Origin: Spirochaetales bacterium
GTDB lineage: Bacteria > Spirochaetota > Spirochaetia > Sphaerochaetales > Sphaerochaetaceae
Reading direction: 5' to 3'
Length of the DNA: 37,094 bases
Assembly (NCBI GenBank): GCA_017475725.1
Contig: JAFVFA010000052.1
Coordinates: 1-37,094 of the forward strand
A model generated the notes under the pieces. The model searched no databases. It saw only the letters and a list, made by a program, of their open reading frames with translations, and was not told where the DNA came from. Position 1 is the stretch's first letter; each line of letters begins with the position of its first letter. This document shows positions 15,138 through 37,094 of the stretch, one piece after another. Made by a program: the position numbers and the translations under genes.

Positions 15138-15167
15138 TGGATAAAACAATTGTTAAAAGGAGTTAAC

Positions 15168-16762: not shown

Positions 16763-16770
16763 GAGAGTTT

Positions 16771-18125: not shown

Positions 18126-18143
18126 CACTCGGAGGGACAAATT

Positions 18144-19562
18144 ATGCTGATTGGTCGAGATCAAGAACAAAGGAAGCTGAGGGAAGCATATCAGGCTGAA
18201 GAATCCCAGTTCATTGCCGTGTATGGAAGACGCAGAGTAGGCAAGACCTACCTTATCCGTGAAAGCTTCGGATCAGGCTTCACCTTTCAGCATACCGGCT
18301 ACTATGGTGGAAAGCTTTCCGATGAATTGTTTGAATTCTGTGCATCTCTACGAGAGTATGGGCTGACAGATTTTGAAAGGCCCAGGAACTGGCTTGAGGC
18401 ATTTGAGCTCCTTAAAGACTTGATCAGAGGCTCAAAAGGGGAAAAGAAGGTGATATTCCTTGATGAACTGTCATGGATGGATACTCGTGGCAGTGATTTC
18501 ATCATGGCTTTGGAAGGGTTCTGGAACAGTTGGGCTTCTGCTAGGAAGGATATTCTTCTTATTGTCTGTGGTTCTGTGACATCTTGGATGCTGAGTAAAA
18601 TAATCCACAACAAGGGAGGTCTATATAATCGTTTGTCCTGCAGAATCCACCTCCAGCCTTTTACCCTCAAAGAGTGTGAGGAATATATTAAATCTAAAAA
18701 AATAGTTATGAACCGTCATCAGATTCTCGAGAGCTATATGATAATGGGTGGTATTCCGTATTATTGGAGTTTCCTTGAAAAAGGATTGAGTCTAGCACAG
18801 AACATTGACCGCTTGTTTTTTTCCAATGATGCTCCTTTGAAGCAGGAATTCGACTATTTGTACTCTGCACTGTTCAAGAGACCCGAGCCATATCTGGAAA
18901 TCGTTTCTGCCTTGGGAAAGAAAAAGACCGGTATGACAAGAGAAGAACTACTTAAGGTTACACATTCGACAGATTCTGGAAATTTTTCCACTCGATTGGA
19001 GGAGTTGGAAAGTTGCGGTTTCATTCGGAAGTATCGCCGGTATGGAATGAAGGAGCGTAATTCAAACTATCAATTGATTGATAATTATACACTCTTCTAC
19101 TTCAAGTTTTTGGATGACAGGCCCACAGATGAGCATTATTGGAGTAATCAGATCAACACGCCAAAGGTCAATGCTTGGTGCGGATTGGCCTTTGAAATGG
19201 TTTGCCTTGAGCATGTCCCTCAGATTAAGAATGCGCTTGGAATCTCCGGGGTTTTGACTGAGGCATACTCATGGATTTGCAAAGAGGATTCAGAGAAGGG
19301 CATACATGGATCTCAGATAGATTTGGTCATTGCCAGAAAGGATCAGGTGATCGACTTATGTGAAATGAAGTTTTCAGTGAAGATGTTTTCTATAACGGAG
19401 AAGATTGATGAGTCCATCAGACGGAAGGCTTCAGATTTTCTTCTGTCCACAGGCGCAAAGTATGCGATTCATACGATACTGGTGACTCCTTATGGAGTTG
19501 CAGATCGCTCCTACGTAGGGAGTATACAGAAAGTCATTACAACAGAGGACCTGTTTTCTTGA
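18144..19562 (+). CDS. Orphan ATP-binding protein, archaeal-type ATPase (Arch_ATPase) + DUF234-like C-terminal PD-(D/E)xK-like domain
   Basis: I prefer the ATG at 18144 because GGAGGG lies 7 nt upstream; the ORF is open from 18093. MLIGRDQEQRKLREAY....FIAVYGRRRVGKTYLIRE is the family N-terminus with Walker A, and VIFLDELSWM is Walker B. The C-terminal GSQIDLVIARKDQVIDLCEMKFS resembles a D...(D/E)xK nuclease-fold core. Confidence 0.8.
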   Translation: MLIGRDQEQRKLREAYQAEESQFIAVYGRRRVGKTYLIRESFGSGFTFQHTGYYGGKLSDELFEFCASLREYGLTDFERPRNWLEAFELLKDLIRGSKGEKKVIFLDELSWMDTRGSDFIMALEGFWNSWASARKDILLIVCGSVTSWMLSKIIHNKGGLYNRLSCRIHLQPFTLKECEEYIKSKKIVMNRHQILESYMIMGGIPYYWSFLEKGLSLAQNIDRLFFSNDAPLKQEFDYLYSALFKRPEPYLEIVSALGKKKTGMTREELLKVTHSTDSGNFSTRLEELESCGFIRKYRRYGMKERNSNYQLIDNYTLFYFKFLDDRPTDEHYWSNQINTPKVNAWCGLAFEMVCLEHVPQIKNALGISGVLTEAYSWICKEDSEKGIHGSQIDLVIARKDQVIDLCEMKFSVKMFSITEKIDESIRRKASDFLLSTGAKYAIHTILVTPYGVADRSYVGSIQKVITTEDLFS

Positions 19563-23592: not shown

Positions 23593-23763
23593 AATAGCCT
23601 CCTAGTAATTCGCTATACAGTTTATTTTATCATGAAAATTACTAAAGGCAACCGAGATGTTCATGAATTTTTGTTCAAGCGGACAGGGGTGCTTTTTCTT
23701 CGCCGATGTTGTACTATTGCAATGTCGGACAGACAGATCCCGAATTTGGAGAGCAGGACTCAA

Positions 23764-24957
23764 ATGGTACTACACGGACGCTTGGTTCTCAAAGACAGAG
23801 TGGTTGACGGATATCTCCGCGTCATTGACGGACGGATATCCGGGATATCGGCATCGAAACCTCCCATCCCGGAAGGTGAGGAGTATCTGGACTACGGTGA
23901 CAGCTTCATCATGCCCGGCTTCGTCGACACACATACGCATGGAAGCGGTGGATTCGACTTCATGGACGGGAGTGAGGAGGACATAGTCGGAGCTGCGCGC
24001 AGCCATGCACGCTTCGGCACGACGACCTGCCTTCCGACAGCTCTGACAAGCTCTGATGAGGAGATGGTCGAATTCCTGAAAAACCTTGGTGCAGTGCACA
24101 GAATGCAGGTTTCCGGAAATCTTCCGGGCTGTGCCAAGATGCCCGGAACCCACCTTGAGGGACCGTATTTCGACATGGTTGAGAAGGGTGCCCAGGACCC
24201 CAGATACATCAGGGATCCGGAGCCGAGACACTACAACATGCTGCTTGAAGCAGGAGACGGCTTGATAAAGCGCTGGTCGGTGGCCCCAGAGAGACCTGGT
24301 GCATTGGAATTCATAGATACAATGGTGAAACAGGGCATTGAAGTCTCTGCGGCTCATACTGCCGCCACCTATGATGACGTCTCCAGGGCATTCGACCACG
24401 GCCTGAACCTCCTGACTCACTTCTACAGCGGCATGAGCACAATCTCAAGGCGGGGTGGCTTCAGGGTCCTGGGAACGGTTGAGAGCGGCTATCTGATAGA
24501 CGGCATGAACATAGAGCTGATCTGCGACGGAAGCCATCTGCCTCCGGAGCTTCTGCGTATGATCTTCAAGCTCAAGGGCCATGACAGGATAATAGCCTGC
24601 TCTGACAGCATGAGGGGTGCAGGAATGCCTGACGGTCCGTCGATACTCGGTCCGAAGAACAACGGCACGGCCTGCATCATCGAGGACGGGATAGCCAAGA
24701 TGCCTGACCGCACATGCTTTGCAGGAAGCGTGGCCACGGGCGACAGGCTTGCAAGGACGCTGCACTGCATCATGGGGCTTTCCATGGATGAGGTGTCCAG
24801 GATCCTCTGCCTCCAGCCTGCAGCTCTGATGGGTCTGGACGATGAGGTCGGCTCTCTGGAGGTCGGAAAGGCTGCGGACCTTGTTGTCTGCAATGATGGA
24901 ATCGAAATCAAGAAAGTCTATATAGACGGCGTTGCAATCCGCAATGCCGGAAAGTGA
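23764..24957 (+). CDS. nagA: N-acetylglucosamine-6-phosphate deacetylase family amidohydrolase
   Basis: Motifs GFVDTHTHGSGGFDFMDG, HLEGPYF, SAAHTAATY, THFYSGMS and the C-terminal LEVGKAADLVV match NagA. The ORF is open from 23632. I prefer the ATG at 23764 (MVLHGRLVLKDRVVDGYLRVIDGRISGI, the typical NagA N-terminus, with GGAGAG 10 nt upstream). The ATG at 23722 is an alternative. Confidence 0.8.
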   Translation: MVLHGRLVLKDRVVDGYLRVIDGRISGISASKPPIPEGEEYLDYGDSFIMPGFVDTHTHGSGGFDFMDGSEEDIVGAARSHARFGTTTCLPTALTSSDEEMVEFLKNLGAVHRMQVSGNLPGCAKMPGTHLEGPYFDMVEKGAQDPRYIRDPEPRHYNMLLEAGDGLIKRWSVAPERPGALEFIDTMVKQGIEVSAAHTAATYDDVSRAFDHGLNLLTHFYSGMSTISRRGGFRVLGTVESGYLIDGMNIELICDGSHLPPELLRMIFKLKGHDRIIACSDSMRGAGMPDGPSILGPKNNGTACIIEDGIAKMPDRTCFAGSVATGDRLARTLHCIMGLSMDEVSRILCLQPAALMGLDDEVGSLEVGKAADLVVCNDGIEIKKVYIDGVAIRNAGK

Positions 24958-24964
24958 GGTTACC

Positions 24965-25702
24965 GTGAATATCAATATCTCTGTTTCAACCACTCCTGTC
25001 GAGAACGGACGCAAGGCCGCTTTCAAGATCGCAGAACTGATCAGCAAGGCCATCAGGGAGAAGGGGTACGCCAGAATAGTCCTGTCGACCGGTGCAAGCC
25101 AGTTCGAGATGTTCGATGCCCTTGTCAAGCTTGACGTTGACTGGTCGAAGGTCGAGATGTTCCATCTTGACGAGTATGTGGCTCTTCCTGAGACCCATAT
25201 CGCCTCGTTCCGCAAGTACCTCAAGGAGAGGTTCGTCAATGTGGTGCATCCGAAGGCAGCCCATTTCGTCAACGGTGAGGGTGATGTGCAGAGGAACATC
25301 GCAGAGCTCACCAAGGAGCTCAGAAGCGATGACATCGACGTCGGCGTCATAGGGATAGGTGAGAACGGGCATATCGCATTCAATGACCCTCCTGCAGACT
25401 TCGATGCCACAGAGGCCTACAGGGTGGTAAATCTGGACCACAAGTGCCGCATGCAGCAGGTGGGTGAGGGCTGGTTCGCAACTGAGGACGATGTCCCTAA
25501 GCAGGCCATCTCCATGCTTCCAAGGCAGATCATGTCATGCAAGACCATAGTCTCCGTGGTACCGCATGCGGTGAAGGCCAAGGCTGTCTATGACACAATC
25601 ACGCAGAAGGTGAACAACATGGTTCCGGCAACGCTTCTGAAGACCCACCCGGAGTGGTACCTCTTCATAGATGATGAAGCCGCATCGTTGCTGATCAAGT
25701 GA
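24965..25702 (+). CDS. nagB: Glucosamine-6-phosphate deaminase / 6-phosphogluconolactonase-family protein
   Basis: Motifs RIVLSTGASQFEMFDALV, VEMFHLDEYV and GIGENGHIAFNDPPADF match NagB. I prefer the GTG at 24965 because GTGAGG lies 6 nt upstream and it follows the nagA stop. In-frame ATGs at 24932 and 24944 would overlap nagA. Confidence 0.8.
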   Translation: MNINISVSTTPVENGRKAAFKIAELISKAIREKGYARIVLSTGASQFEMFDALVKLDVDWSKVEMFHLDEYVALPETHIASFRKYLKERFVNVVHPKAAHFVNGEGDVQRNIAELTKELRSDDIDVGVIGIGENGHIAFNDPPADFDATEAYRVVNLDHKCRMQQVGEGWFATEDDVPKQAISMLPRQIMSCKTIVSVVPHAVKAKAVYDTITQKVNNMVPATLLKTHPEWYLFIDDEAASLLIK

Positions 25703-25851: not shown

Positions 25852-27183
25852 ATGTATCTTAAACGCAAGATTGATTCGTATCTGGCAGAATGGAAAAAGG
25901 ACCCGGATAGAAAACCGCTGATTGTCAAAGGCGCGCGACAGATAGGGAAGACCAGATCCATAGAGATGTTCGCTGAGAATAACTATTCTCACGTGGTCTA
26001 TATCAATTTTGTCCTGGAGCCTAAATACAAGAGCATCATCTCCGATGGATACGATGTTAACTCGATTGTACGGAACATCAGCCTTCTGGATCCTTCAAAG
26101 GTATTCATGGAAGGACATACCCTGCTTGTCTTTGACGAGATTCAGGATTGCCCGGATATAGCAACCACATTGAAATCTTTCTGTCTTGACAGGCGGTATG
26201 ATGTGATCTGCTCCGGTTCAATGCTTGGGATCAACTATAAGAAGATCCACAGCAACAGTGTGGGCTTCAAGACCGATTATGAGATGCATTCCCTCGATTT
26301 CGAGGAGTTCCTTTGGGCTAGAGGACGCAATGAGGCTGCCGATGATATTCTGACCCATATGGTCAACTATGTTCCGTTCTCTGACGTTGAAATGAAGGTT
26401 TACAAGGACCTGCTGCTGGAATATGCAGTGATCGGTGGAATGCCTGCCGTGGTCAGCGGCTTCATTCAGAGACAGAGTTATGAAGGTTCTTTGGAGACCC
26501 AAGGACAGATTGTTCTGGATTATGAGGAGGATATCCGGAAGTACGTGACTGGTCTTGAACAGACCAAGATAATCAACGTTTTCAGGAGTATCCCGGCGCA
26601 GCTTGCAAAGGAGAACAAGAAGTTCCAGTTCTCGGTTGTATCCAGCAAGGCCAGAAGCAGGGAATACTCCGGTTGCATCGATTGGCTGGTTGATTCCGGC
26701 ATTGTGAACATATGCTATTGCATGGGGTTCCCTGAGTTGCCTATCAAGGGAAATGTGGACTACAGCAAGTTCAAGCTCTATTATTCTGACTCCGGTCTTC
26801 TTGTGTCCCAGCTGGATGAGGAAGCCCAGTATGATATAAGGGCAAACAGGAATCTGGGCACCTACAAAGGTGCTCTGTATGAGAACCTCGTTTCAGAAGC
26901 ATTCGTCAAACAGAATCTTCCTACTGTGTATTACAAACGTGATGACTCGACACTTGAAGAAGATTTCTTTGTCAGAACACCAGATGAGCTGATCCCTGTT
27001 GAAGTGAAGGCGAACAACAACAATTCAAAATCCATGCGTACCCTGATACAGTCGAATCACTATCCTGAAATTCACAGAGGCATGAAGTTCTCTGATGCCA
27101 ATGTCGGGAATGAGAACAGCATCATGACGTTTCCGCTTTTCTGTGCATTCCAGACCAAGAGGTTCCTTTCAATGTTGAAGTGA
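25852..27183 (+). CDS. Orphan ATP-binding protein, AAA_14 ATPase + DUF4143 (PD-(D/E)xK-like) domain
   Basis: The N-terminus is YLKRKIDSYLAEWKKDPDRKPLIVKGARQIGKTRSIEMF (Walker A) and LLVFDEIQ is Walker B. The C-terminal EEDFFVRTPDELIPVEVKANNN is the conserved DUF4143 E/D...P(V/I)EVK core. An AGGAGAG RBS lies 5 nt upstream. Confidence 0.85.
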   Translation: MYLKRKIDSYLAEWKKDPDRKPLIVKGARQIGKTRSIEMFAENNYSHVVYINFVLEPKYKSIISDGYDVNSIVRNISLLDPSKVFMEGHTLLVFDEIQDCPDIATTLKSFCLDRRYDVICSGSMLGINYKKIHSNSVGFKTDYEMHSLDFEEFLWARGRNEAADDILTHMVNYVPFSDVEMKVYKDLLLEYAVIGGMPAVVSGFIQRQSYEGSLETQGQIVLDYEEDIRKYVTGLEQTKIINVFRSIPAQLAKENKKFQFSVVSSKARSREYSGCIDWLVDSGIVNICYCMGFPELPIKGNVDYSKFKLYYSDSGLLVSQLDEEAQYDIRANRNLGTYKGALYENLVSEAFVKQNLPTVYYKRDDSTLEEDFFVRTPDELIPVEVKANNNNSKSMRTLIQSNHYPEIHRGMKFSDANVGNENSIMTFPLFCAFQTKRFLSMLK

Positions 27184-27496: not shown

Positions 27497-28489
27497 TCAG
27501 AAGAAGAACTGGAACATGACGTAGGCCGCGTAGACAATCAGCAGGACTATGCCCTGGTACCTTCTGAGCTTCTTCGTCAGCAGGGCCGGCACCGTCATGA
27601 AGGCCATGACGAAGAACATCAGCGGCACGTCCACGACCAGCGATGCGTTCATGCCTCCTATCAGCTTGTCTGCAGGGATCGTAAACGGATTGATGGTCAT
27701 TGCCATTCCGCTTACAAGGACAAGGTTGAACAGGTTGGCTCCCACTATGTTTCCGAGAGACAGGGATGAATGTCCCTTGACCAGTGAGGTTATTGCGGTG
27801 ACAAGCTCAGGCAGTGATGTGCCGAGTGCGATGAAGGTCAATGCTATGACCGACTCCGGGACTCCGAGTCCGGCTGCGATGATCTTCCCGTTGTCAACCA
27901 GAAGGTTTGCGCCGAGTGCAATGACTCCTGCCCCAAGGATCAACAGGACGATGTCCTTCCAGAGAGGCGAGTTCTTCTCCTTCTCCTCGTCTTTCTCGAC
28001 TTCAGCCTCAGCGGCATCGTCTATGGTCAGTCTGTTCTTCAAAGCCTGCCTGACGGTAAGTGTCATGTAGACCAGGAAGATGGCAAGGAGGATTATTCCG
28101 ATCAGTCTGCTGAATGTTCCTGTGGTGTAGGCAACCCCCGCATAGAGAATGGCTGCTCCGAAGAAGAACATGACCGGGGTCCTGAATGTCTTTGTGTTGA
28201 CTTCGGCGACGGACTTTGCTGAGATTGTGATTGCGCAGATCAGTGCTGTGTTGCAGATTATGGATCCGATTGCATTCCCGTATGCTGTCTGGCTCTGTCC
28301 GACTGCGGCCGCAATGGAAGAGACCATGACTTCAGGTATTGTGGTTCCGATGGAGACGACTGTGGCCCCGATCAGAATCTCCGGAATGTGGTAGCGATGG
28401 GCTACGCCCACAGCACCGTCAACGAACCAATCGCCGCCCTTGATCAGAAGGACAAGCCCGACTGCGAACAGTAATACTGCTTTGATCAT
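27497..28489 (-). CDS. CaCA-family cation/Ca2+ antiporter (YrbG-like)
   Basis: The 330-aa product is polytopic. It carries the two alpha-repeat signatures GATVVSIGTTIPE and FIALGTSLPELVTAI. It is the last gene of the minus-strand GRE operon, 32 nt after the upstream stop. Confidence 0.85.
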   Translation of the reverse strand: MIKAVLLFAVGLVLLIKGGDWFVDGAVGVAHRYHIPEILIGATVVSIGTTIPEVMVSSIAAAVGQSQTAYGNAIGSIICNTALICAITISAKSVAEVNTKTFRTPVMFFFGAAILYAGVAYTTGTFSRLIGIILLAIFLVYMTLTVRQALKNRLTIDDAAEAEVEKDEEKEKNSPLWKDIVLLILGAGVIALGANLLVDNGKIIAAGLGVPESVIALTFIALGTSLPELVTAITSLVKGHSSLSLGNIVGANLFNLVLVSGMAMTINPFTIPADKLIGGMNASLVVDVPLMFFVMAFMTVPALLTKKLRRYQGIVLLIVYAAYVMFQFFF

Positions 28490-28521
28490 GTGAGACTCCC
28501 TTTTTGTGTGTATTTTGCCTT

Positions 28522-29544
28522 TCAGAGAGGAATTCTAACACCATTGCGCGATGATGAATAGAGACCCAGAATCACAGAAAGCGGAATTCTGCCCTGATCT
28601 CCATCGATGAGCAGAGGCTTCCCGTACATGTAATGGTCCCTGATGTTCTCGAACTCCCTCCTGTGGTATTCGGTGTTTATCCCCCTGGGGTCCGCGGAGG
28701 CTGATCCTCCCGTGGTGCTCTGCCCGCTGACAGGGCATGGGGAGGGCAGGGCCCAGAGACTTATGGAGTCGTCTTCAAGTATGACGGTGCCTTTCTCCCC
28801 GCAGATTATGAACTTCTTCGCGAATGACGGTGTGGAGCAGACGGTCGCATCTATGGAACCGACTGACCCGTTCTCGAACTCGACCGCGGCGACTGCAGTG
28901 TCCTCCACCTCTATGTCCCTGAGCCTGGTTGTTGCATAGCCCATGACGGATTTGGGTCTTCCCATTATGTAGCAGAGAACGTCGATGCCGTGGATGCCCT
29001 GGTTCATCAGGACTCCGCCTCCATCGTATTTGACAGTTCCGCGCCAATCGGCCTGGTCATAGTAGGACTGGGGTCTTGAATAGCGCATCATCAGCTGGGC
29101 GGAGACCATCTTCCCGAACTCGTTGTTCTCAACGGCTCTGCGGATGGCCTGCACGGAATCGGAGAACCTGGTCTGTGAGATCACGCACAGGGCAAGCCCC
29201 TTTTCCTTTGCAAGGGCAATGAGCTCATCCGCCTCTTCAAGGGAAAGGCACATCGGTTTCTCCACAACAACGTTCCTGTTATGGAACAAAGCCTGTTTTG
29301 CGGCCTCGTAATGATTTCCAGAAGGTGAGCATATTGTAACGAAATTGATTCTTTCATCCGATAAGAGGTCATCAATTGAAGGTTTTGCCTCTATGTTGAA
29401 CTTCTCTGCCAGCTTCTGTGCGCTGCTGTAGGATGCGGATGTGCAGGAAACCAGTTCACAGCCGTCCACCTGCCTTATCACTTCGGCATGGTAGTAGCCG
29501 ATCATTCCGAATCCGATGATTCCGAATCTCAGTTTCCTGTCCAT
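28522..29544 (-). CDS. Gfo/Idh/MocA-family NAD(P)-dependent oxidoreductase
   Basis: The N-terminus is a Rossmann fold, LRFGIIGFGMIGYYHAEVI. The motifs ...EKPMCLSLEEADELI.. and a C-terminal alpha/beta dimerisation domain follow. The start overlaps the upstream gene by 16 nt. Confidence 0.85.
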   Translation of the reverse strand: MDRKLRFGIIGFGMIGYYHAEVIRQVDGCELVSCTSASYSSAQKLAEKFNIEAKPSIDDLLSDERINFVTICSPSGNHYEAAKQALFHNRNVVVEKPMCLSLEEADELIALAKEKGLALCVISQTRFSDSVQAIRRAVENNEFGKMVSAQLMMRYSRPQSYYDQADWRGTVKYDGGGVLMNQGIHGIDVLCYIMGRPKSVMGYATTRLRDIEVEDTAVAAVEFENGSVGSIDATVCSTPSFAKKFIICGEKGTVILEDDSISLWALPSPCPVSGQSTTGGSASADPRGINTEYHRREFENIRDHYMYGKPLLIDGDQGRIPLSVILGLYSSSRNGVRIPL

Positions 29545-30767
29545 CTGTTCTCCTTGTTGACATCAAGTATAACACCATCTGCCTTGAGGGTGGACCTGAG
29601 TTTTCTGACATCCAGGTTCCGGACTGTGGTGCCTTCCTCTATCAGCTGTGATGCGGCAGTGCCTGCGGCCTGTCCTGTTGCACTTGCCTGCGGAATGCAT
29701 CTGATTATCTCCCAAGCCTCTCCTGAGACGCTTATGCAGCGTCCTGCGCAGAGGACGTTCTCCAGATGATCGTTGAAAAGCGTCCTGTACGGGATCTCGT
29801 ACACCGGTCCTGGTCTCCTCCAGTCTCCGGTCCCCGCTATGTTGTCGTCAAAGTGCATGTTCGCATCCCTGTCGGACAGCTCGTAGGCCCCTTCTATCCT
29901 TCTGGCCATCCTGATGTCGGCCATGCCTGGAAGGGAGGCGGGCTCAAGGGTCGGGTTTCTCTTCATCTCAGAGAGAAGGCTGGAGTGGGAATCCTTTATG
30001 AACCTGTCCACGTCTTCCGCACTGTCTCCGTAGTATGGGACGTTGACGATGTGCTTCCTGGCCTTTGTGTCTATCCTGCCCATGCTGATCAGCCTTATGC
30101 CGGGTGCATCCCGTCCTCCGCGGTTCTGGTTTATGCAACTGCCGTCATCTGCAGGTCCTTCAGAGTCTGTCGCATAGAACCAGATTGAAAGGCTGTTCTT
30201 TGCAGCTATGCATCTGGAGCCGTTTCTGAAGAACAGATCCGCATCTCCGGAGGCGTCGACAACTGCTTTGGCTGCATAGAGGGATCTTCCGCTCTTGTTC
30301 TCCACAAAGACACCTTTACAGATGCCTCCATGCATGAGGCCTCCGACGAACAGGCTGTCATAGAGGATCTCCACTCCTTCTGTGACAAGCAGCTCCTCAA
30401 GGGCAAGGGAGAAGGCGGGGCCGTTGAATTTGCACTCGTACCTTCTTCCTTCCTCCTTCCATGTCCTGATGTCGGTACCATGGTAGGCGTATTTTGTGGA
30501 GAGCTTCAGAAGCTCCTCACTGATTCCTCCTATCACCTGGCGGCCATAGCCGTCGTCAAGGGGTAGGTAGATCGTTATGTGTCCTGTTGTGGCAAGACCG
30601 CCAAGGACCGTGAGCTTCTCTATCAGCAGGACACTTCTTCCATGTCTCCTTGCTGCGATGGCAGCACTGCAACCTGCAATGCCTCCACCGATGACTATGA
30701 CGTCGAAGGAGCCCTTCGTCCTTGATGGGTCCTCCGGCTTGCCTGTGTATCTCTCGTTCTCATTCAT
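29529..30767 (-). CDS. FAD-dependent oxidoreductase (FAD_oxidored / PF12831-like)
   Basis: The dinucleotide fold is FDVIVIGGGIAGCSAAIAARRHGRSVLLIEK. The length and the C-terminal ...ASATGQAAGTAA... motif are typical of this glycan-locus-associated flavoprotein family. Confidence 0.75.
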   Translation of the reverse strand: MNENERYTGKPEDPSRTKGSFDVIVIGGGIAGCSAAIAARRHGRSVLLIEKLTVLGGLATTGHITIYLPLDDGYGRQVIGGISEELLKLSTKYAYHGTDIRTWKEEGRRYECKFNGPAFSLALEELLVTEGVEILYDSLFVGGLMHGGICKGVFVENKSGRSLYAAKAVVDASGDADLFFRNGSRCIAAKNSLSIWFYATDSEGPADDGSCINQNRGGRDAPGIRLISMGRIDTKARKHIVNVPYYGDSAEDVDRFIKDSHSSLLSEMKRNPTLEPASLPGMADIRMARRIEGAYELSDRDANMHFDDNIAGTGDWRRPGPVYEIPYRTLFNDHLENVLCAGRCISVSGEAWEIIRCIPQASATGQAAGTAASQLIEEGTTVRNLDVRKLRSTLKADGVILDVNKENRWTGN

Positions 30768-30773
30768 GGTCTT

Positions 30774-31862
30774 CTAGTTCTCAGGGCCAAAGCAGCGGAA
30801 CATCTCAATGGTGCTGCCGCTGTAGGCTGATATGGAGTAGTCCCCGGATGCGGCAGGGACGAAGAACTGGTCTCCTCCTCGGATCGGGATCTCCCGGTCA
30901 CTGGTGATCATCCTGCCTCTTCCTCCAAGGATGTATATGCCGCAGAATATGCCGTCAGACTTCAGGTCGCACCTTCCGGTCACATTGATCCGCTCCATCC
31001 TGAAACAGCTGGTGTTCTCGTAGCCTATGATCTGGCTGCGCACGAACCCGTCTGTCCTTTCGAGGATGGTCGGCTGGATCTTCCATTTCTCCATGGCCTG
31101 GTCCAGTGTGTATCCGTTGTAGTCGAAGCAGTCGAACATCCTCTCGAATCCCAGACCCTGGTGGCAACCCATGTCTGCAACCTTCAGACCTTTTGGTGTG
31201 GTCCGCTCGACCCTGATGGTGTAGTCGGTGGGTTCCTGTATCTCAACCAGAAGGCAGCCTGTGCCTATGGCATGCGGGACACCCCCGTTTATCAGCCAGG
31301 TGTCCCCGGGTTTGACCTCTATGTGATGCATGTGGCCAAGGAGGGCAGGGATGTCCTGCTCATCGAAGCAGCGCTTCCATTCCTCTCTGGTTATGCCGGG
31401 TTTGAAACCCATGTATATGCTGGGGGCCTCGCCGTCTATGGTTCTGCCTCCCAGCACATACCAGCATTCAGTCTTGCCGAACTTGGAGTTGAACAGGGAC
31501 AGCGCCTTCTCCTTGTTTGGATGGACCTGCACCGTCAGCCTCTCGGCGGCGTCTATGACCTTGACCAGAACACCGGTGGTCGCACCGATGTTTCTGGCAT
31601 GCCTTGTTCCAAGGGCTTTTTCGGGATCGGACTCGATGTAGTCCTTCAGGGACACTGACTTGTCATCGTCAAGGAAGCAGATCCCCTCGATGATGTCCTC
31701 CCTGCCTGCGTTTCTGGCCACAACAGTGGACATTATCCACTCCTCAGGGAACTGGGTGTCCCTGCTGTCCTGTATGCCGTGGATCCTGTCAATCAGGCTT
31801 CCGCCTGTGTAGGTTCTCCAGGCCCTTCCCGATGTGAGCTTAAGTGGAACGTCGTATCTCAT
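30774..31862 (-). CDS. Type I phosphomannose-isomerase-like cupin (sugar/sugar-phosphate isomerase)
   Basis: Metal and cupin motifs LTVQVHPNKEKA, GKTECWYVLG and GGVPHAIGTG match class I PMI of the Firmicutes ManA/Pmi type. Confidence 0.75.
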   Translation of the reverse strand: MRYDVPLKLTSGRAWRTYTGGSLIDRIHGIQDSRDTQFPEEWIMSTVVARNAGREDIIEGICFLDDDKSVSLKDYIESDPEKALGTRHARNIGATTGVLVKVIDAAERLTVQVHPNKEKALSLFNSKFGKTECWYVLGGRTIDGEAPSIYMGFKPGITREEWKRCFDEQDIPALLGHMHHIEVKPGDTWLINGGVPHAIGTGCLLVEIQEPTDYTIRVERTTPKGLKVADMGCHQGLGFERMFDCFDYNGYTLDQAMEKWKIQPTILERTDGFVRSQIIGYENTSCFRMERINVTGRCDLKSDGIFCGIYILGGRGRMITSDREIPIRGGDQFFVPAASGDYSISAYSGSTIEMFRCFGPEN

Positions 31863-31864
31863 TG

Positions 31865-32656
31865 TCAGCCGATTCTCTCTCCCTTGGAGTTGAAGTCGGC
31901 GTGTTTGCCTGTTGGGATGTGCGAGGCATCAAGTCTCTTGAGGGCAAGGTCGTTGTCCGGATAGAAGTCTATCCAGAGGTAGTGGCAGTGCTCGCCTTCC
32001 TTGACGTCAACTCCGTGCATCGATCCAAGTGGGATGTAGAGCAGCTCCGAACCTGACATGTGGACGGGTTCGAAGTCGATCAGGACGTCCATCTCGTTCT
32101 CCGGGAAAGAGAAGAAGTACTGGTCAAGCATCGGGTGGTCATGCGACTTGACTGCATCGACTCCATATGTCTCGACAGAACCGTAGGCGAAACGTGGAAT
32201 CTTCCTCTGGTCAACGCAGCTTCTGCTGATGGTCTTGTCGCTCTTGTTCCTGTCCCTGTACTGCTTTGAGTTGCGGTAGATCTGGATGAGAGGGAACTGC
32301 GTCTTGTACTCTGCTGCCAGCTCGTCATCGCCCTCTCTGAAGTTCCATCTGATCTCAAGTATGTGTGCATCCGTCTTGGCCTTGATGGTGACGCTGCATT
32401 TTGGATCCGGGATGAGGGAGACTCTCTCGTGGAATGAGTACTCGTTGCCGTCAGTGTCGAACTCAACCTCTCCGATGAAGCAGATCAGGATATGGTAGAA
32501 GTCTCCGGGCTCGAGTGTGAGCTCAGTCCCCGCCATGATCGAGTGATGATAGGGTGTGGCACCGGGAATGCATCCCGGCAGCAGCACTGTTGTTCTGTTC
32601 TCTCTTGTTGTGACATCCAGTTTCTGGGTTGGTACGTCTCTCATATGTTCCTCCAT
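31865..32656 (-). CDS. Cupin-fold protein of unknown function (possible bicupin)
   Basis: A C-terminal cupin metal motif is present (SHDHPMLDQYFF...IPLGSMHGV). An N-terminal cupin-like half lacks clear His ligands. An alternative start at 32644 has GGAGGA 4 nt upstream. The stop lies 2 nt before the PMI-like start. Confidence 0.6.
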   Translation of the reverse strand: MEEHMRDVPTQKLDVTTRENRTTVLLPGCIPGATPYHHSIMAGTELTLEPGDFYHILICFIGEVEFDTDGNEYSFHERVSLIPDPKCSVTIKAKTDAHILEIRWNFREGDDELAAEYKTQFPLIQIYRNSKQYRDRNKSDKTISRSCVDQRKIPRFAYGSVETYGVDAVKSHDHPMLDQYFFSFPENEMDVLIDFEPVHMSGSELLYIPLGSMHGVDVKEGEHCHYLWIDFYPDNDLALKRLDASHIPTGKHADFNSKGERIG

Positions 32657-32667
32657 TTTACCGTTTT

Positions 32668-34896
32668 CTATTCTTCACAGGCATCGCCGTTTACGGCTCT
32701 GACCCTGTCCACGACCAGTTCTCTGAACTTCTCGCTCAACATGGCGAAGAAGGCCGTGAAGCCTGTGACCCTGACGACAAGGTCCGGATACTTGTACGGA
32801 TCCTTGTGAGCCTCCAGTATCTTCTTGGCATCGATTATGTTGATGTTCAGAAGGGTGTTTCCGCTCTTCATTATGCCCATGACCATGGCGCACATCTTGT
32901 CGACCCCTTCCGGGTCGTTGGCTATCTGAGGGTCAACCTCAAGCTGGACGGGGGCGGTGTTCCCGTAGCCAGGCTGGATGGCGGCGATGGAGTTGCACAT
33001 GCTTGTCACAGCTCCATCCTTCCTGAAACCGCCGTTCGGGTTTGCCCCATGGTTTATGGGTTCTCCCTTCCTTCTTCCGTTGGGCGTAGCACCCAGGATC
33101 GAACCCAGAAGTATGGTGTTTGACCAGGAGAAGAAGCCCGGGATGAAGTTGACGTGCTTCGGGTTGTCGCTGTGCTGTCTGACAAGGTCCCTTACCAGAG
33201 AGGTCCAGAGTTTGGATATCCTGACGGCCCATCTGTCACCTATGGTGTCTCCGCCGCCGTATCTCTCGCTGTGGAGCATCATCTGCCTTGTGTATTCCCC
33301 GCCTTCATCGTTGAAGTCCGCATCCATGTGCCTGGTGAGTTCGGCGTAGGTGAGCTTGTGCTCTATGTCTATCCTCTGCTCGCAGGCGGCGAAACTGTCG
33401 GCCGCAACTGCCAGGCCCGCTCCGTCGACGCACATGTTGTAGTAGTTGGCCCCTCCGTCCGTTATGTTCTCCCCCTTCTCGATCAGACCGTGCTGGAAGA
33501 GGTTGAGGATCAGCTCTGGCTGGCTCTTTGTCTGGTAGGTCAGATGGTGGATTATGCCCTTTCCGGTTGCATCCACTGCTATCTTCAGATGCTTGCTGAA
33601 GTAGTCCCAGAGGACCTCTGAGCTTGGGGTTATGCTTCCGGCGTTGTCCATCATGTCCTTGTAGGCCACGGAGAACACCATTGCGATGTTGACCTTGACC
33701 GTGTCGTTCATCGTGTATTCCATGCCCGGCATGCACATCCAGTGGCATCCTGCGGCAACCCTCTTCCTTGCAAGCTCCTTGGAGTAGCCGCATCTCATGA
33801 ATCCTTCGGTGAGGGCCTTGTCGTTCGAGTATCTTGGCCATCCCTGCTTGTTCTTGAAAAGGAGCTCAACGGACTCCCTGAAGAAGACAGGGTCAAGCTT
33901 GTCATGGACCCTGATCGTCAGGTTTGTCGCGATGTTGAGCTTGTCTGCGGCGTAGAGGGCAAGGTAGCTCAGATGACAGGTCTTGTCGTTGTCGTTCTCG
34001 TCAGGTCCTCCAAGCTGCCAGTATCTGCTGTCCTGCAGGAACATGCAGGCAAGGTAGAAGATGGCCTCGTCGTCCGTGAGCCTTCCGGCTTTGATGTCAC
34101 GCTCATAGAACGGGTTGAAGAGGTCCTCAAGCTGTCCACCTGCGCTTCCTCTGTTGTAGGTTCTGCTCAGCATGCTGAACCAGTTGCTCCATTGGATGGC
34201 CTCCCTGAAGGTCTCAGGAGGATTTTCAGCTATCTTTCTGTCAATATCGGCCATTATTCTGAGGTTTTCGGAAAGCTGCTTGTTCTTCTCCTCCCTGGAG
34301 CAGGCCTCAATCTCGTCCGCGGCCCTCCTTATGAAGGCCATTATGTTCTCCACAACCTCTATCTCGGAGTCGTAGAATTCCCTGTGTGTCTCGTCATGGA
34401 GCTCCTTCTGCTCCTTGAGCTTTCTGAGTATTCCACCCCATCCGAGGTCCATTCCGATCTGGAGATCCGGTGTGAAATGGTGGCAGTTGTCTATTCCCGA
34501 TATGACCTGGTACTTGTCGAAGATGGCCTGGAGCTCAGGGTAGGCGTAGTCAGGGTTCCACTTCTTTGTCTTGGGTCTGAGTCTCTCAAGGAACAGAAAG
34601 CCCTTTGCGGAGAAGGCATCAAGGGCATCCACGTAGATTGGATGCTGCTGCAGAATGGAGCAGTAGTTCTCCGTCCATGCCTTGTAGCCGTATATGGATC
34701 CGTTGGGGTGGTTGGGTTTCAGCTTGTAGTCGAACACATTCTGGACTATAAGCCCGTAGTCGTCCTCGTCCGCTCCACCGGCCTTTGCCTTCTCTTCGGT
34801 CTGCTGGACCTTCCGCCTGCGCAGAAGTGCAATCCTCTCGTCATAGGAGAATGTCCTGTTCGGGTCGAACTCGTTTATGAATCTTATCTCGCTCAT
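32668..34896 (-). CDS. Glycyl radical enzyme, PFL2/dehydratase-like class, divergent (742 aa)
   Basis: The C-terminal glycine-radical motif is DLVVRVTGFTAFFAMLSEKFRELVVDRV (Gly712, codon 32763-32761). The candidate thiyl loop AAGCHWMCMPG carries Cys384 (codon 33747-33745), 328 aa upstream of Gly712. The internal EAIQWSNWF...GGQLEDLFNPFYERDIKAGRLTDDEAIFYLACMF matches the PFL2 core. An activase gene lies adjacent. Confidence 0.9.
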   Translation of the reverse strand: MSEIRFINEFDPNRTFSYDERIALLRRRKVQQTEEKAKAGGADEDDYGLIVQNVFDYKLKPNHPNGSIYGYKAWTENYCSILQQHPIYVDALDAFSAKGFLFLERLRPKTKKWNPDYAYPELQAIFDKYQVISGIDNCHHFTPDLQIGMDLGWGGILRKLKEQKELHDETHREFYDSEIEVVENIMAFIRRAADEIEACSREEKNKQLSENLRIMADIDRKIAENPPETFREAIQWSNWFSMLSRTYNRGSAGGQLEDLFNPFYERDIKAGRLTDDEAIFYLACMFLQDSRYWQLGGPDENDNDKTCHLSYLALYAADKLNIATNLTIRVHDKLDPVFFRESVELLFKNKQGWPRYSNDKALTEGFMRCGYSKELARKRVAAGCHWMCMPGMEYTMNDTVKVNIAMVFSVAYKDMMDNAGSITPSSEVLWDYFSKHLKIAVDATGKGIIHHLTYQTKSQPELILNLFQHGLIEKGENITDGGANYYNMCVDGAGLAVAADSFAACEQRIDIEHKLTYAELTRHMDADFNDEGGEYTRQMMLHSERYGGGDTIGDRWAVRISKLWTSLVRDLVRQHSDNPKHVNFIPGFFSWSNTILLGSILGATPNGRRKGEPINHGANPNGGFRKDGAVTSMCNSIAAIQPGYGNTAPVQLEVDPQIANDPEGVDKMCAMVMGIMKSGNTLLNINIIDAKKILEAHKDPYKYPDLVVRVTGFTAFFAMLSEKFRELVVDRVRAVNGDACEE

Positions 34897-34909
34897 CTCT
34901 TCCTCTTGT

Positions 34910-35812
34910 TCAGCTTATCTTCAGTTCCACACCTGCGTCCTGCAGCTGTTTCCGTATCTCCTCCAGGTCCTTGTTGGAATACGGCCTGCAGTCCCCGAAT
35001 GGGTCCTCCGCATCCATTGCCATGCGTTTGGAGGAGCCGAGAGGATTGTAGTTCAGAAGCTCGTAGTACTTTATGTTCCTCAGCTTGGACACGAACTCGG
35101 CAACGCCCTTGAGGTTCGTGATGTCGTTCGTGGCCCCTGGTATCAGAGGTGTCCTCACTATCATGGGGATCCCGAGAAGGGATGACCTTCCGATGTTGTT
35201 GAATATGATCTGGTTGTCAACCCCTGTGTACTTCTTGTGGGTGGGGGAGTCCACATGCTTCAGGTCGCACATGATAAGGTCCATCTTCTTCAGCATTGGC
35301 TCGATCCGGTGGTAGGGAAGGGCCATGTTGGTCTCGCAGGCTATCCTGATGCCCTCTGCGTGGCAGGCGTCGGCAAGCTCCTCTATGAAGGCCGAATGGA
35401 GAGAGGCCTCTCCTCCCGAGACCGTGACGCCACCGTCCGACAGATCGTAGTACAGCTTGTCCTGACGCACCTCCGCCATGACCTCCTCAACGGTGTATGG
35501 CTTTGAGGACATCACAAGGGCGGATGCTGTGCAGTTCTCCGCCAGATCCTCCGCATTTTTCAGTATCTTCCTGTCAATCACATGTCTGCCGCCCTCCAGC
35601 CTGACGGCGTTGGGTGGGTCGCTGAGCCTGAAGCATGTTCCGCAGCCTATGCACTTGTTGGAATAGTGCATGAGAACCGGCTTCATGGATATCGTCTCCG
35701 GATTGTGGCACCATGTGCAGTGCATGTTGCACCCCTGGAAGAACACTGTGGTCCTTATGCCTGGACCGTCGTTCAAGGAGAATCTCTGAATGTTCGTTAT
35801 CAATGCCTGCAT
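34910..35812 (-). CDS. Glycyl-radical enzyme activating protein (radical SAM)
   Basis: The N-terminus is IQRFSLNDGPGIRTTVFFQGCNMHCTWCHNPE (CX3CX2C). An auxiliary ferredoxin-type motif CIGCGTC and the SAM-binding GGVTVSGGE are present. A GGGAG RBS lies 7 nt upstream. Confidence 0.9.
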   Translation of the reverse strand: MQALITNIQRFSLNDGPGIRTTVFFQGCNMHCTWCHNPETISMKPVLMHYSNKCIGCGTCFRLSDPPNAVRLEGGRHVIDRKILKNAEDLAENCTASALVMSSKPYTVEEVMAEVRQDKLYYDLSDGGVTVSGGEASLHSAFIEELADACHAEGIRIACETNMALPYHRIEPMLKKMDLIMCDLKHVDSPTHKKYTGVDNQIIFNNIGRSSLLGIPMIVRTPLIPGATNDITNLKGVAEFVSKLRNIKYYELLNYNPLGSSKRMAMDAEDPFGDCRPYSNKDLEEIRKQLQDAGVELKIS

Positions 35813-35950
35813 CGATGACTCCCTTTTCTATATTTGTAGCGCACGTAAGCGCATACGGATTCACACTCAAAGATTAGTCACTGGGTTCACCATCAGACAA
35901 TACAAAAAAAGCGGCAAAAAAAGCGGAAATATTTGGGGCATGCTTTGGTT

Positions 35951-35985
35951 CCCATCTGATAAAATGCCCATCTGATAAAATGCCC
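35951..35985. repeat. Perfect 16-bp tandem repeat CCCATCTGATAAAATG x2 (+CCC) in the divergent GRE-operon/regulator control region
   Basis: Copies lie at 35951-35966 and 35967-35982, followed by CCC. The repeat sits 60-95 nt upstream of the regulator ATG (36045). A second short direct repeat, AAAAAAAGCGG x2, lies at 35904-35926. Confidence 0.9.
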
Positions 35986-36044
35986 TTGAAAACGCGGATG
36001 ATGGGATTTAGAATTTTCTTTGTTGAATTATTATGGGAGGGTAT

Positions 36045-37094
36045 ATGCAGCTGGACAACAAAACGATTTTTCTGATAGTTGAGCCAAACTACATGACGCC
36101 CTTCTGGTATGCACGGAGCATAGAGGGGCTGGAGGAGGCCGCGGCAAGGCACAAGCAGGAGGTCCGCAGGCTCTCTTCCATCAATGAGCTCGATGTTCAG
36201 ACAACCGCCATAGTCATAATCGGCACCACACACTCATGGATAAAGGAGACGCTGGACCAGGTCAGGTCCAGAAACCTCCGCCCGATACTGATCGGGACCA
36301 TACCGTCCAAGTACGGTGAGGATGTCTCCGGGACGATGTACGGCAGCCATTCGGCAATAGAGGAGATGGTCCACTATTTCCATTATTACGGACGCAGGAA
36401 GATCGCCCTGGTTGACATCAATGCGAATTCGTCCAACGACTCCATGAAGGTCGAGAGCTTTCTGGGCACAACCAGCAAGCTGGGTCTGGACACCTCATAC
36501 AACGACATCTTCTTCCGCAACTCAGGGTCCCAGAATGGGGATGACAAGTTCCTGCAGAACATACGGTCCTATGATGGCGTCATCTGCTCGAACGACTACT
36601 CCGCCGCCTTCCTGCTGAAGTACGCAGAGGACAACGGAATCAGGGTCCCGGACGAGCTTTTTGTGGCGGGGTTGGGGGATACATCCCTCTGCCGCTACAC
36701 CAATCCCACCCTGACATCTGCCACAAGAAGCTACTACGAGACGGGCGAGAACGCCTATGAGCTGTGGAGGACCCTGACACGCAACCCGAACGTGGAGTCA
36801 ATAGTCACTACAATGCGCAGCTACCTCAAGCCCAGAGGGAGCACGGGCTTCATGCCGGGTGTCAAGGTGGAGATCAACCAGTTCGGTGTCCCTGCCGCAA
36901 GCTCCGAGCTCGACAAGAACATAATGAGGAAGGGCGCAGACTCCCTGAAGTCAATCCAGGAATGCCTTTCCCAGTGTGACTCTGTGGACATGTCGATAAT
37001 AGCCGGAGTCCTGACCAACGACAGCAATGAAAGGCTCGCAGAGGACCTCTCAATGTCGACTGGAGCCATAAACTACAGGCTGAAGAAACTCTAC
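36045..37094 (+). CDS. Transcriptional regulator with LacI/PBP-type sugar-binding domain and C-terminal LuxR/sigma-r4-like HTH, 3'-truncated by window end
   Basis: This ORF is not in the track because it has no stop in the window; I translated it by hand from the ATG at 36045 (GGGAGG 5-10 nt upstream). The frame stays open for 350 codons to the window end. It begins directly with the PBP core (TIFLIVEPNYMTPFWYARSIEGLEEAA...RKIALVDINANSSNDSMKVESF...DGVICSNDYSAAFLLKYAEDNGIRVPDELFVAGLGDT). It ends with DMSIIAGVLTNDSNERLAEDLSMSTGAINYRLKKLY, which is HTH-like. Confidence 0.7.
   Translation, partial: MQLDNKTIFLIVEPNYMTPFWYARSIEGLEEAAARHKQEVRRLSSINELDVQTTAIVIIGTTHSWIKETLDQVRSRNLRPILIGTIPSKYGEDVSGTMYGSHSAIEEMVHYFHYYGRRKIALVDINANSSNDSMKVESFLGTTSKLGLDTSYNDIFFRNSGSQNGDDKFLQNIRSYDGVICSNDYSAAFLLKYAEDNGIRVPDELFVAGLGDTSLCRYTNPTLTSATRSYYETGENAYELWRTLTRNPNVESIVTTMRSYLKPRGSTGFMPGVKVEINQFGVPAASSELDKNIMRKGADSLKSIQECLSQCDSVDMSIIAGVLTNDSNERLAEDLSMSTGAINYRLKKLY

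Follow-up and report, generated by a model that had tools for sequence, protein, structure and literature searches.

A glycyl radical enzyme clade with conserved sugar-isomerase and oxidoreductase partners: a candidate pathway for a hexuronate-like acid in gut and rumen bacteria

Glycyl radical enzymes (GREs) carry out difficult anaerobic reactions of gut microbes, and each clade to which a function was assigned has revealed a new flow of metabolites, such as those of choline to trimethylamine, of hydroxyproline, of isethionate to H2S and of anhydroglucitol. The closest described systems already include enzymes that act on sugars, as YbiW and PflD are GRE isomerases whose substrates are 1,5-anhydroglucitol-6-phosphate and 1,5-anhydromannitol-6-phosphate (PMC13450708). 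According to the same review, of June 2026, all GRE 1,2-eliminases and the three GRE isomerases keep a C-x-E motif, in which the Glu binds a substrate hydroxyl, while an adjacent Cys-Cys pair is confined to pyruvate formate-lyase (PFL) and TdcE (PMC13450708). Here, we describe a gene array centred on a GRE of 742 aa in a 37,094-nt stretch of a Spirochaetales genome (assembly GCA_017475725.1, contig JAFVFA010000052.1, positions 1 to 37,094), referred to below as the window. This enzyme belongs to a clade that breaks the C-x-E rule uniting GRE eliminases and isomerases. The clade, termed here C-(H/N)-W, its loop and its partner set are absent from the 2026 review (PMC13450708) and were not met in the literature searches made here. 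Taken together, the data make it quite probable that the array encodes an uncharacterised GRE-dependent carbohydrate pathway. A narrower and more tentative reading, to which we give a rough probability of 0.45, is that the pathway, not described before, uses the GRE in the breakdown of an anionic, hexuronate-like sugar acid, as predicted from the genes and their context.

An earlier note, made from the DNA alone, had described seven co-directional minus-strand genes at 27497-35812, separated by gaps of 13, 11, 2, 6, -16 and 32 nt. The listing of open reading frames (ORFs) confirms the array and returns exactly these gaps, and Pfam and NCBIfam scans uphold the proposed order of radical S-adenosylmethionine (SAM) activase, GRE, cupin, phosphomannose isomerase (PMI)-like protein, PF12831 flavoprotein, Gfo/Idh/MocA dehydrogenase and CaCA antiporter. 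The divergent regulator with a sugar-sensor-type domain is borne out as well, since a Peripla_BP_3 domain was found. The features are as follows.

34910..35812, minus strand: GRE-activating enzyme, radical SAM (TIGR02494, PF04055, CX3CX2C motif)
32668..34896, minus strand: 742-aa GRE of a distinct clade (PF02901, PF01228)
31865..32656, minus strand: 263-aa bicupin of a new sequence family (AlphaFold2 model, fold search, synteny)
30774..31862, minus strand: PMI-like protein, candidate metal-dependent aldose-ketose isomerase with type I PMI fold (weak PF21621/PF20511 matches, metal-site motifs)
29529..30767, minus strand: FAD-dependent oxidoreductase (PF12831 match)
28522..29544, minus strand: Gfo/Idh/MocA NAD(P)-dependent sugar dehydrogenase/reductase, GFO1 (PF01408, PF22725, PF02894)
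27497..28489, minus strand: CaCA calcium/sodium antiporter (TIGR00367)
35813..36044, no strand: divergent promoter/operator region between activase and regulator (promoter-like sites, repeats)
36045..37094, plus strand, running past the window end: regulator with a periplasmic-binding-protein-like sugar sensor (PF13377)

The glycyl radical enzyme and the C-(H/N)-W clade

Judged by its motifs, the 742-aa protein is a member of the GRE superfamily and of its PFL-like division. It combines the four defining features, namely a PFL-like barrel (PF02901, 280.7 bits over residues 140-598), an RVxG glycyl domain (PF01228, 50.2 bits), a loop Cys and a nearby activase with a CX3CX2C motif. The radical glycine is Gly712 (codon 32761-32763) in the motif R709-V-T-G712 and is invariant across the clade, while the catalytic Cys384 (codon 33745-33747), in the loop G-C-H-W, is invariant in 100 clade sequences. 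The activase scores 279 bits against the TIGR02494 cutoff of 174, also matches PF04055, and carries its CX3CX2C motif as Cys28/Cys32/Cys35 together with a Cys-rich ferredoxin-like insert. As far as sequences can tell, activase and GRE are thus a cognate pair with the motifs for radical catalysis intact. Membership of the aminoacyl radical enzymes, in which the radical-bearing Gly is replaced by Ala, Ser or Thr, was considered and rejected: Gly712 is kept, and the Thr of RVTG occupies the x position.

Placement of the enzyme within the known functional classes fails at every level. A phmmer search matched 36 solved GRE structures, the best of which is E. coli PflD (8yjo, 160 bits), and the structures of glycerol dehydratase, CutC, HypD, diol dehydratase and IslA follow at 118-148 bits. 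None of the curated GRE equivalog or subfamily cutoffs is reached: the scores are 222 against 678 for TIGR01774, 187 against 1000 for HpsG, 171 against 1100 for HypD, 166 against 1050 for CutC, 69 against 994 for the PFL model TIGR01255, and about 95 bits against 1100-1150 for the models of 4-hydroxyphenylacetate decarboxylase (HPAD) and indoleacetate decarboxylase. For the CutC, HypD, HpsG, PFL and decarboxylase models, this amounts to a 5- to 15-fold shortfall. Cys384 aligns to the Cys of the PflD GCVE loop and Trp386 to its Glu, so that the C-x-E motif is missing from the Cys loop (C384-H385-W386); the TIGR01774 score and this missing motif make the label "PFL2-class" in the earlier note too strong. 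The adjacent Cys-Cys pair of the formate-lyases is also absent, as a single Cys is followed by His and a second Cys at +4 is not conserved. In addition, the 13- and 11-nt gaps flanking the GRE gene leave no room for a small accessory subunit gene of the X-succinate synthase or HPAD type.

An exhaustive HMMER search over 1.84 billion representatives delineated the clade as about 13 full-length clusters at 35-50% identity (468-817 bits), surrounded by a wider G-C-x-W group at 27-32%. Its boundary is marked by a score gap, with full-length members at 468-872 bits versus under about 210 bits for canonical C-x-E GREs. Members share the Cys loop G-C-(H/N)-W-x3-P-G-x-E-Y and the Gly loop RVTG(F/Y), and clade-wide conservation extends to a Glu nine residues after the Cys (Glu393) and to an Asp at Cys+14. 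All come from metagenome-assembled genomes (MAGs), and their public names are generic: "PFL family", "pyruvate formate lyase family protein" or "formate C-acetyltransferase". One residue separates the orthologs of the window enzyme from the rest of the clade: Arg291, in D-S-R-Y-W, is invariant in 41 orthologous GREs and absent from 59 GREs of other sub-families, among them the RhaT/MFS-linked ones. It aligns with the Arg of ARYF in PflD, the substrate of which is a phosphorylated sugar.

The genes adjoining the other sub-families encode RhaT-type, MFS-sugar and ABC-sugar transporters, AP_endonuc_2 proteins and Gfo proteins. Because of these neighbours, the whole clade is carbohydrate-associated, with different sugars for different sub-families. 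Pairing with Gfo genes is likewise a clade-wide trait that extends beyond the orthologs of the window, since further sub-families have two or more Gfo genes before the GRE: at least two Gfo/Idh/MocA genes precede the clade GRE in loci L041, L042, L044, L050, L099 and L118, with six in L099. Separately, ten loci (L062, L068, L069, L074, L075, L081, L083, L084, L088 and L097) form one C-(H/N)-W sub-family in which the GRE gene is always followed by genes for a Pfam-less protein of about 141 aa and a RhaT-type sugar-proton symporter. This arrangement suggests another orphan GRE pathway, whose substrate would be a neutral (deoxy-)sugar.

Partner proteins and the conserved neighbourhood

Altogether, 126 loci were gathered from four sources: contigs with close homologs, GTDB species genomes, metagenomes scanned with distant clade members as seeds, and contigs with bicupin or flavoprotein homologs. 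The MAGs that carry a GRE ortholog (69-91% identity) belong to Spirochaetales/Sphaerochaetaceae, Oscillospiraceae, Christensenellaceae, Lachnospiraceae, other Clostridia and, in the case of one bin, Verrucomicrobia, and all of them come from the rumen, the livestock hindgut or the human (Hadza) gut. Co-occurrence of partner genes was counted with six-frame hidden Markov model searches on 51 orthologous loci, each partner being counted only where the flank sufficed.

Activase: 48/49 orthologous loci, adjacent to the GRE
Bicupin: 42/42, in three phyla
PMI-like protein: 42/42, in three phyla
AP_endonuc_2 gene APEa: 24/32, with four further loci fused
Gfo gene GFO3: 24/32
Any Gfo gene: 29/32
FAD oxidoreductase: 13/32
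TRAP transporter (DctPQM): 11/32
UxuA: 4/32
UxuB: 4/32
CaCA antiporter: 0/32, among loci with full flanks

Since activase, GRE, bicupin and PMI-like genes are syntenic in 42 of 42 loci across three phyla, the arrangement is not due to chance. The best explanation is a horizontally mobile catabolic cluster of strictly anaerobic gut and rumen bacteria. Membership of the operon as drawn from the window therefore stands for the bicupin and the PMI-like protein and falls for the CaCA antiporter; the occurrence of the flavoprotein gene and of its Gfo neighbour is limited to certain lineages. The antiporter, which exceeds the TIGR00367 cutoff of 180 with 205 bits, is probably a passenger outside the pathway. 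No internal minus-strand terminator was found in the scan of the operon, including the interval between the Gfo and CaCA genes.

The 263-aa bicupin defines a family of its own. It matches no Pfam family, even at E<=1, and no NCBIfam family; its homologs form about 250 clusters, every one named "hypothetical", and this family is confined to the GRE cluster. The AlphaFold2 model (pLDDT 95, pTM 0.92) is a two-barrel cupin, and Foldseek aligns it at TM scores of 0.6-0.7 to DR1152/YlbA, BacB, EF2996, quercetinase and an IolB-like protein, with 6-18% identity. A sequence search against the PDB gave only a marginal match to EutQ (E=0.12). Membership of the KduI/IolB family is not indicated, as there is no PF04962 match and the IolB-like structure 2qjv ranks 25th, at TM 0.57 and 12% identity. 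In the C-terminal barrel, His172, His174, His214 and His225 are invariant, and His172, His174 and His214 form a probable metal site.

The PMI-like protein matches PF20511 and PF21621 weakly and scores 84.6 against 116.2 for TIGR00218 and 31.6 against 571 for PRK15131. Its QVHP, KTECW and PHA metal-site motifs align with those of the B. subtilis structure 1qwr. The protein thus keeps the metal ligands of type I PMI, and the name ManA is unwarranted because the score lies under the manA equivalog cutoff.

Among the oxidoreductases, the flavoprotein matches PF12831 at 201.9 bits against a gathering score of 27, and its G27-G28-G29 and G32 are invariant. To our knowledge, no member of PF12831 has a known function, so that membership says little about the reaction. 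The AlphaFold2 model (pLDDT 84.5) retrieves generic GR2 flavoproteins only, at TM scores of 0.51 or less, on scaffolds of geranylgeranyl-reductase-like, FixC-like and monooxygenase type. Three of the four cluster architectures include the flavoprotein, and linkage to the GRE persists for homologs at 54% identity; the flavoprotein is thus an accessory member of the cluster rather than a passenger. A 100%-identical database protein (P0406) has 407 aa instead of the 412 aa of the ORF, and the true start possibly lies five codons downstream, which would shift the gap on the upstream side and leave unaffected the 16-nt overlap with the GFO1 gene. GFO1 itself has a Gfo/Idh/MocA domain scoring 103 bits, and the named families most similar to it, inositol 2-dehydrogenase and UDP-GlcNAc 3-dehydrogenase, are matched far under cutoff. 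Of the partners found in related loci, APEa is nearest to the 5-keto-L-gluconate epimerase TM0416/IolO, to ketose 3-epimerases and to a 3-keto-glucoside 4-epimerase. GFO3 is nearest to structural-genomics oxidoreductases and, among named structures, to DgpA C-glycoside 3-dehydrogenases.

Gene order differs between lineages. In the spirochaete layout, APEa, GFO3 and a second AP_endonuc_2 gene accompany DctPQM beyond the regulator gene, and the closest relatives of the window (L004 and L033), in which the regulator is 79% identical, share this layout. Orthologs of the regulator at 45-79% identity stand between the GRE operon and the TRAP operon in L001-L006, L030, L033, L124 and L125. Because the closest relatives carry TRAP, APEa and GFO3 beyond the regulator, the window probably holds half of the system, the other half being predicted for the source genome from these relatives. 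Most Clostridia have APEa and GFO3 immediately after the PMI-like gene, together with a divergent AraC regulator. Four loci have an APEa-Gfo fusion of 630 aa beside the activase.

The regulator of the window scores 59.6 bits for PF13377, and its C-terminal helix-turn-helix is weak. A sequence scan of the 232-nt region between activase and regulator found promoter-like sites on both strands. The same region holds two perfect tandem duplications, of the 12-mer CAAAAAAAGCGG (two copies, 35903-35926) and of the 16-mer CCCATCTGATAAAATG (two copies, 35951-35982), which could be operator repeats or products of replication slippage.

Several further observations concern the edges of the cluster. The 630-aa fusion of an AP_endonuc_2 TIM barrel to a Gfo/Idh/MocA protein lies directly upstream of the activase (7155-9047 in L020, 4925-6817 in L121-L123), and this type of cluster is very widespread in the human gut (211 blocks in the index), where it adjoins a GH94 phosphorylase-family gene and large CBM_4_9 proteins. 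Genes of the UDP-glucose/GDP-mannose dehydrogenase family occur at the cluster edge in two unrelated architectures (282-1478 in L002/L003, 12628-13431 in L125/L126); they might generate, or relate to, a C6-carboxylated sugar. A beta-lactamase-fold protein of about 494 aa (cluster c13) stands beside the Clostridial clusters in L009, L010, L025, L028, L035 and L037. Its nearest family, matched at 205 bits and so under the cutoff of 800, is that of 3-succinylated cholic acid synthase, and it might act as an esterase or acyltransferase in the release or modification of the substrate. A common polysaccharide source was sought among the flanking carbohydrate-active enzymes and dismissed, as the flanks vary in their content (GH94 genes in two architectures, one weak match of GH106-like type, GH2 once, CBM_4_9), and no GH67/GH115 or pectinase signal was present in the cluster flanks examined.

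Candidate substrates, proposed pathway and rival explanations

The earlier note had proposed that the GRE is an orphan outside all characterised GRE pathways and is linked in function to genes for sugar isomerases and oxidoreductases. This proposal is supported by scores far under all cutoffs, a best structural match of 160 bits (PflD), the missing C-x-E motif, partners conserved across phyla and the literature, in which searches in sugar-acid, inositol and rhamnose contexts returned no GRE with a bicupin/PMI-like/Gfo partner set. The accompanying view that radical chemistry on sugars is largely uncharted is outdated, given the action of YbiW and PflD on 1,5-anhydrohexitol 6-phosphates. As for the hexose-derived substrate, the link to sugars holds, and the evidence points more to an anionic sugar acid than to the proposed keto-, deoxy-, anhydro- or amino-sugars.

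Transport and downstream genes provide the clues to such an acid. Among PDB structures, the TRAP binding protein is nearest to 4N8Y and 4X8R (136 and 117 bits), which are the galacturonate-bound and glucuronate-bound structures, respectively (PMC11668362). The SiaP sialic-acid binders come close behind, and the isethionate binder 8t9t reaches 74.5 bits. Some Clostridia loci carry a permease of the AEC family, which transports organic anions. Genuine UxuA (486 against 191 bits) and D-mannonate oxidoreductase (438 against 281) genes lie inside several loci of both architectures: both stand between activase and GRE in L026, UxuA belongs to the TRAP operon in L120, and a PfkB kinase gene is found beside the TRAP module in L124. 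Candidate substrates are 4-O-methyl-glucuronate, other modified uronates and keto-aldonates. A literature search on the fate of 4-O-methyl-glucuronate, which was swamped by generic terms, returned nothing relevant.

These elements can be assembled into a model. The acid would be imported by the TRAP system with its uronate-binder-like protein in spirochaetes and by the AEC-type anion permease in some Clostridia. The Gfo dehydrogenase or dehydrogenases and the AP_endonuc_2 enzyme would then reposition a carbonyl or a stereocentre, thereby making or using the substrate of the GRE. By analogy with known members of the superfamily, C-O cleavage is the most plausible chemistry for the GRE: its thiyl radical would take a carbinol hydrogen and drive a C-O cleavage inaccessible to polar chemistry, be it a dehydration, an ether cleavage or a ring opening. 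The base would be a residue other than the canonical Glu, for which the clade-conserved Glu393 (Cys+9) and His385 are candidates. Finally, the two cupin isomerases and the reductases, including the flavoprotein where present, would lead to intermediates at the level of fructuronate/mannonate or 2-keto-3-deoxygluconate (KDG), which would enter the UxuB/UxuA/KDG-kinase route.

Several points weigh against this model. Everything past the GRE and its activase rests on gene context, and the TRAP/APEa/GFO3 half lies outside the window and is predicted from relatives only. UxuA and UxuB are each present in just 4 of 32 loci and TRAP in 11, and a recognisable dedicated transporter is missing from most Clostridia loci. 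The similarity of the TRAP binding protein to uronate binders (136 bits) does not single out a ligand, with sialic-acid binders scoring nearly as high. In addition, a radical C-O elimination would give a deoxy-keto product, for which passage via mannonate is not obvious. The set of three Gfo proteins, two AP_endonuc_2 proteins and a bicupin equally resembles inositol or cyclitol gene sets, and the missing catalytic Glu could mean that the GRE reaction is not an elimination at all.

The resemblance to cyclitol genes leads to an explanation that we consider unlikely, namely a pathway for a cyclitol or cyclitol-carboxylate such as myo- or chiro-inositol, pinitol, quinate or shikimate. In such a pathway, the Gfo proteins would be inositol- or quinate-type dehydrogenases, the AP_endonuc_2 proteins inosose or dehydroshikimate dehydratases or isomerases, and the bicupin an IolB-like isomerase. 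Steps of the IolE/IolD type would be replaced by a radical reaction of the GRE, be it a dehydration, a demethoxylation or a ring cleavage. Several Gfo genes, one or two AP_endonuc_2 genes and a bicupin indeed recall the classical iol repertoire, which in B. subtilis comprises iolG/X/W, iolE/I/H and iolB. The best NCBIfam match is inositol 2-dehydrogenase for the Gfo proteins and IolO for APEa, and an IolB-like structure is among the fold matches of the bicupin (rank 25); the inositol-related family matches, however, are all far under their cutoffs. In Thermotoga, IolO acts as 5-keto-L-gluconate epimerase in an inositol route that leads into tagaturonate and the UxuAB pathway. Distribution in herbivore guts would suit plant cyclitols, and a carboxylated cyclitol, e.g. 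quinate, would be compatible with TRAP import, but the TRAP binding protein is nearest to hexuronate binders. No IolC, IolJ, IolA or IolD-type genes were seen, the PMI-type aldose-ketose isomerase present in 42 of 42 loci would be without a role on carbocycles, and UxuA, UxuB and PfkB indicate open-chain hexuronate intermediates.

The ring opening of an anhydro-sugar is, in our estimate, decidedly improbable. Here, a functional analogue of YbiW/PflD would convert a non-phosphorylated or carboxylated sugar (a 1,5-anhydro-hexitol, 1,5-anhydrofructose, levoglucosan or a 3,6-anhydro sugar) into a deoxy-ketose, whose processing by cupin isomerases and Gfo reductases would account for the need for aldose-ketose isomerases. 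PflD is the best solved relative, but at just 160 bits; intramolecular C-O cleavage of sugars by GREs is established, but the C-x-E Glu that deprotonates the C2-OH in YbiW/PflD is replaced by Trp. Pairs of Gfo/Idh/MocA and AP_endonuc_2 proteins are a hallmark of the levoglucosan and 3-keto-glycoside routes, and weak NCBIfam matches to the levoglucosan dehydrogenase and BT_2158/2159 families were obtained. Partners of the anhydroglycolysis kind (PTS, kinase or aldolase) are nonetheless lacking, and the uronate-type TRAP, the AEC permease and UxuA/UxuB favour an acid over a neutral anhydro-sugar. Far less probable is a C-S lyase acting on sulfoquinovose or a derivative, in which the PMI-like protein would isomerise a 6-sulfo sugar, the sulfonate mimicking a phosphate, before the GRE eliminates sulfite in the manner of IslA and HpsG. 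C-S lyases are known among GREs, TRAP systems carry sulfonates, and sulfoquinovose is abundant in herbivore guts, where Sphaerochaetaceae take part in its degradation in the rumen; according to the same rumen sulfoquinovose paper, however, these Sphaerochaetaceae run the sulfo-transketolase pathway. The isethionate binder 8t9t is among the weaker matches of the TRAP binding protein, at 74.5 bits against 136 and 117 for the uronate binders. Neither a sulfoquinovosidase nor a sulfite reductase or sulfite exporter was seen in any locus examined, the GRE is without C-x-E, and a check that included the E. rectale sulfoglycolysis paper found no link between PMI-like proteins and sulfoquinovose isomerases. 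As for the possibility that the database annotation is right, the public names of the relatives (pyruvate formate lyase family, formate C-acetyltransferase) would make the enzyme a PFL or a glycerol/diol dehydratase with unrelated neighbours. This is effectively excluded by motifs, scores and synteny: there is neither a Cys-Cys pair nor C-x-E, TIGR01255 gives 69 against 994 and TIGR01774 222 against 678, and the bicupin and PMI-like genes are syntenic in 42 of 42 loci across phyla.

It is also conceivable, if rather unlikely, that C-(H/N)-W GREs catalyse a type of reaction new to GREs, on free sugar acids and without the canonical Glu as base. Examples would be the radical demethoxylation of xylan-derived 4-O-methyl-glucuronate, or the C-O or C-C cleavage or epimerisation of a uronate-like compound, and the obligate bicupin and PMI-like protein would then handle a new deoxy-keto-uronate intermediate. 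Such a reaction would mean both a new functional class of GREs and a pathway, widespread in gut and rumen, by which a plant acid is consumed.

Window context, significance and comparison with known systems

The remaining genes of the window encode BspA-type leucine-rich-repeat surface proteins, lipoproteins, ATPases, an ABC transporter and NagA/NagB-like enzymes. Two giant ORFs of 2042 and 1731 aa (2688-8816 and 8828-14023) combine BspA-type leucine-rich repeats with numerous beta-sandwich repeats of CarboxypepD_reg/prealbumin-like type and an Lcl C-terminal domain, and are probably surface adhesins; they are followed by LPP20/LpoB-like lipoprotein genes at 15150-17892. Amino-sugar genes, i.e., an N-acylglucosamine 2-epimerase-family gene (111-1205), a NagA-like amidohydrolase gene (23632-24957) and a NagB-like glucosamine-6-phosphate deaminase gene (24932-25702), are without linkage to the GRE operon in relatives. 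ATPase genes of the AAA_14/DUF4143 type lie at 25852-27183 and 18093-19562, with a homolog just downstream of the GRE cluster in L001, and may mark mobile or variable cluster junctions.

Metagenomes of the rumen, the livestock hindgut and the human gut are rich in this clade, which has spread across phyla and is everywhere wrongly annotated as pyruvate formate-lyase; it is one among many GRE clades awaiting biochemistry. Its strictly conserved partners make a testable system of defined size, and the transporter, UxuA/UxuB and kinase context leads to a short list of substrates. A solution would add a GRE reaction class, annotate the bicupin family and a PF12831 flavoprotein subfamily, and probably explain the anaerobic consumption of a plant-derived acidic sugar.

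Compared with PflD and YbiW, the system shares a PFL-like GRE with a dedicated activase, an Arg aligned to that of PflD ARYF and, probably, an anionic hexose derivative as substrate. The similarity is remote, the Cys loop reads GCHW rather than GCVE, and the 742-aa GRE is about 40-80 residues shorter, with a clade-specific N-terminus. Partners differ as well, with PTS and aldolase in the PflD/YbiW systems, and bicupin, PMI-like, Gfo, AP_endonuc_2 and TRAP proteins here. The GRE 1,2-eliminases, i.e., glycerol and propanediol dehydratases, CutC, HypD, IslA/IseG, HpsG and HpfG, have in common with the window enzyme the fold, the RVxG loop and the single loop Cys. In contrast, C-x-E is missing here, as are microcompartment, aldehyde dehydrogenase and sulfite-handling genes; in line with what the earlier note said of the operon, no microcompartment, pta/ack, sulfite-reductase or aldehyde-dehydrogenase gene was found in the window.

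Modules that combine Gfo and AP_endonuc_2 proteins in an oxidise-then-rearrange logic, such as DgpA/DgpBC, levoglucosan Lgd, Bacteroides BT2156-2159 and IolG/IolE/IolI/IolO, contain the same pair of families, which is fused in L020 and L121. None of them, however, includes a GRE, the present bicupin or a PMI-like protein, and the matches to them are far under cutoffs. KduI/IolB and BacB resemble the bicupin in their two-barrel cupin architecture, similar size and His-rich metal site (TM 0.57-0.63 to BacB and the IolB-like structure), whereas the bicupin lacks a match to PF04962 or any other Pfam family, stays at 6-18% identity and belongs to a family confined to the GRE cluster. With the hexuronate pathway (UxaC-UxuB-UxuA-KdgK-KdgA, with a uronate TRAP), the system shares a TRAP binding protein most like uronate-bound structures and, in some loci, UxuA, D-mannonate oxidoreductase and PfkB. 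In contrast to that pathway, UxaC is absent here, and the upstream steps would fall to the GRE, the cupins, the Gfo proteins and AP_endonuc_2; the substrate would therefore be a modified uronate-like compound beyond the reach of the classical pathway.

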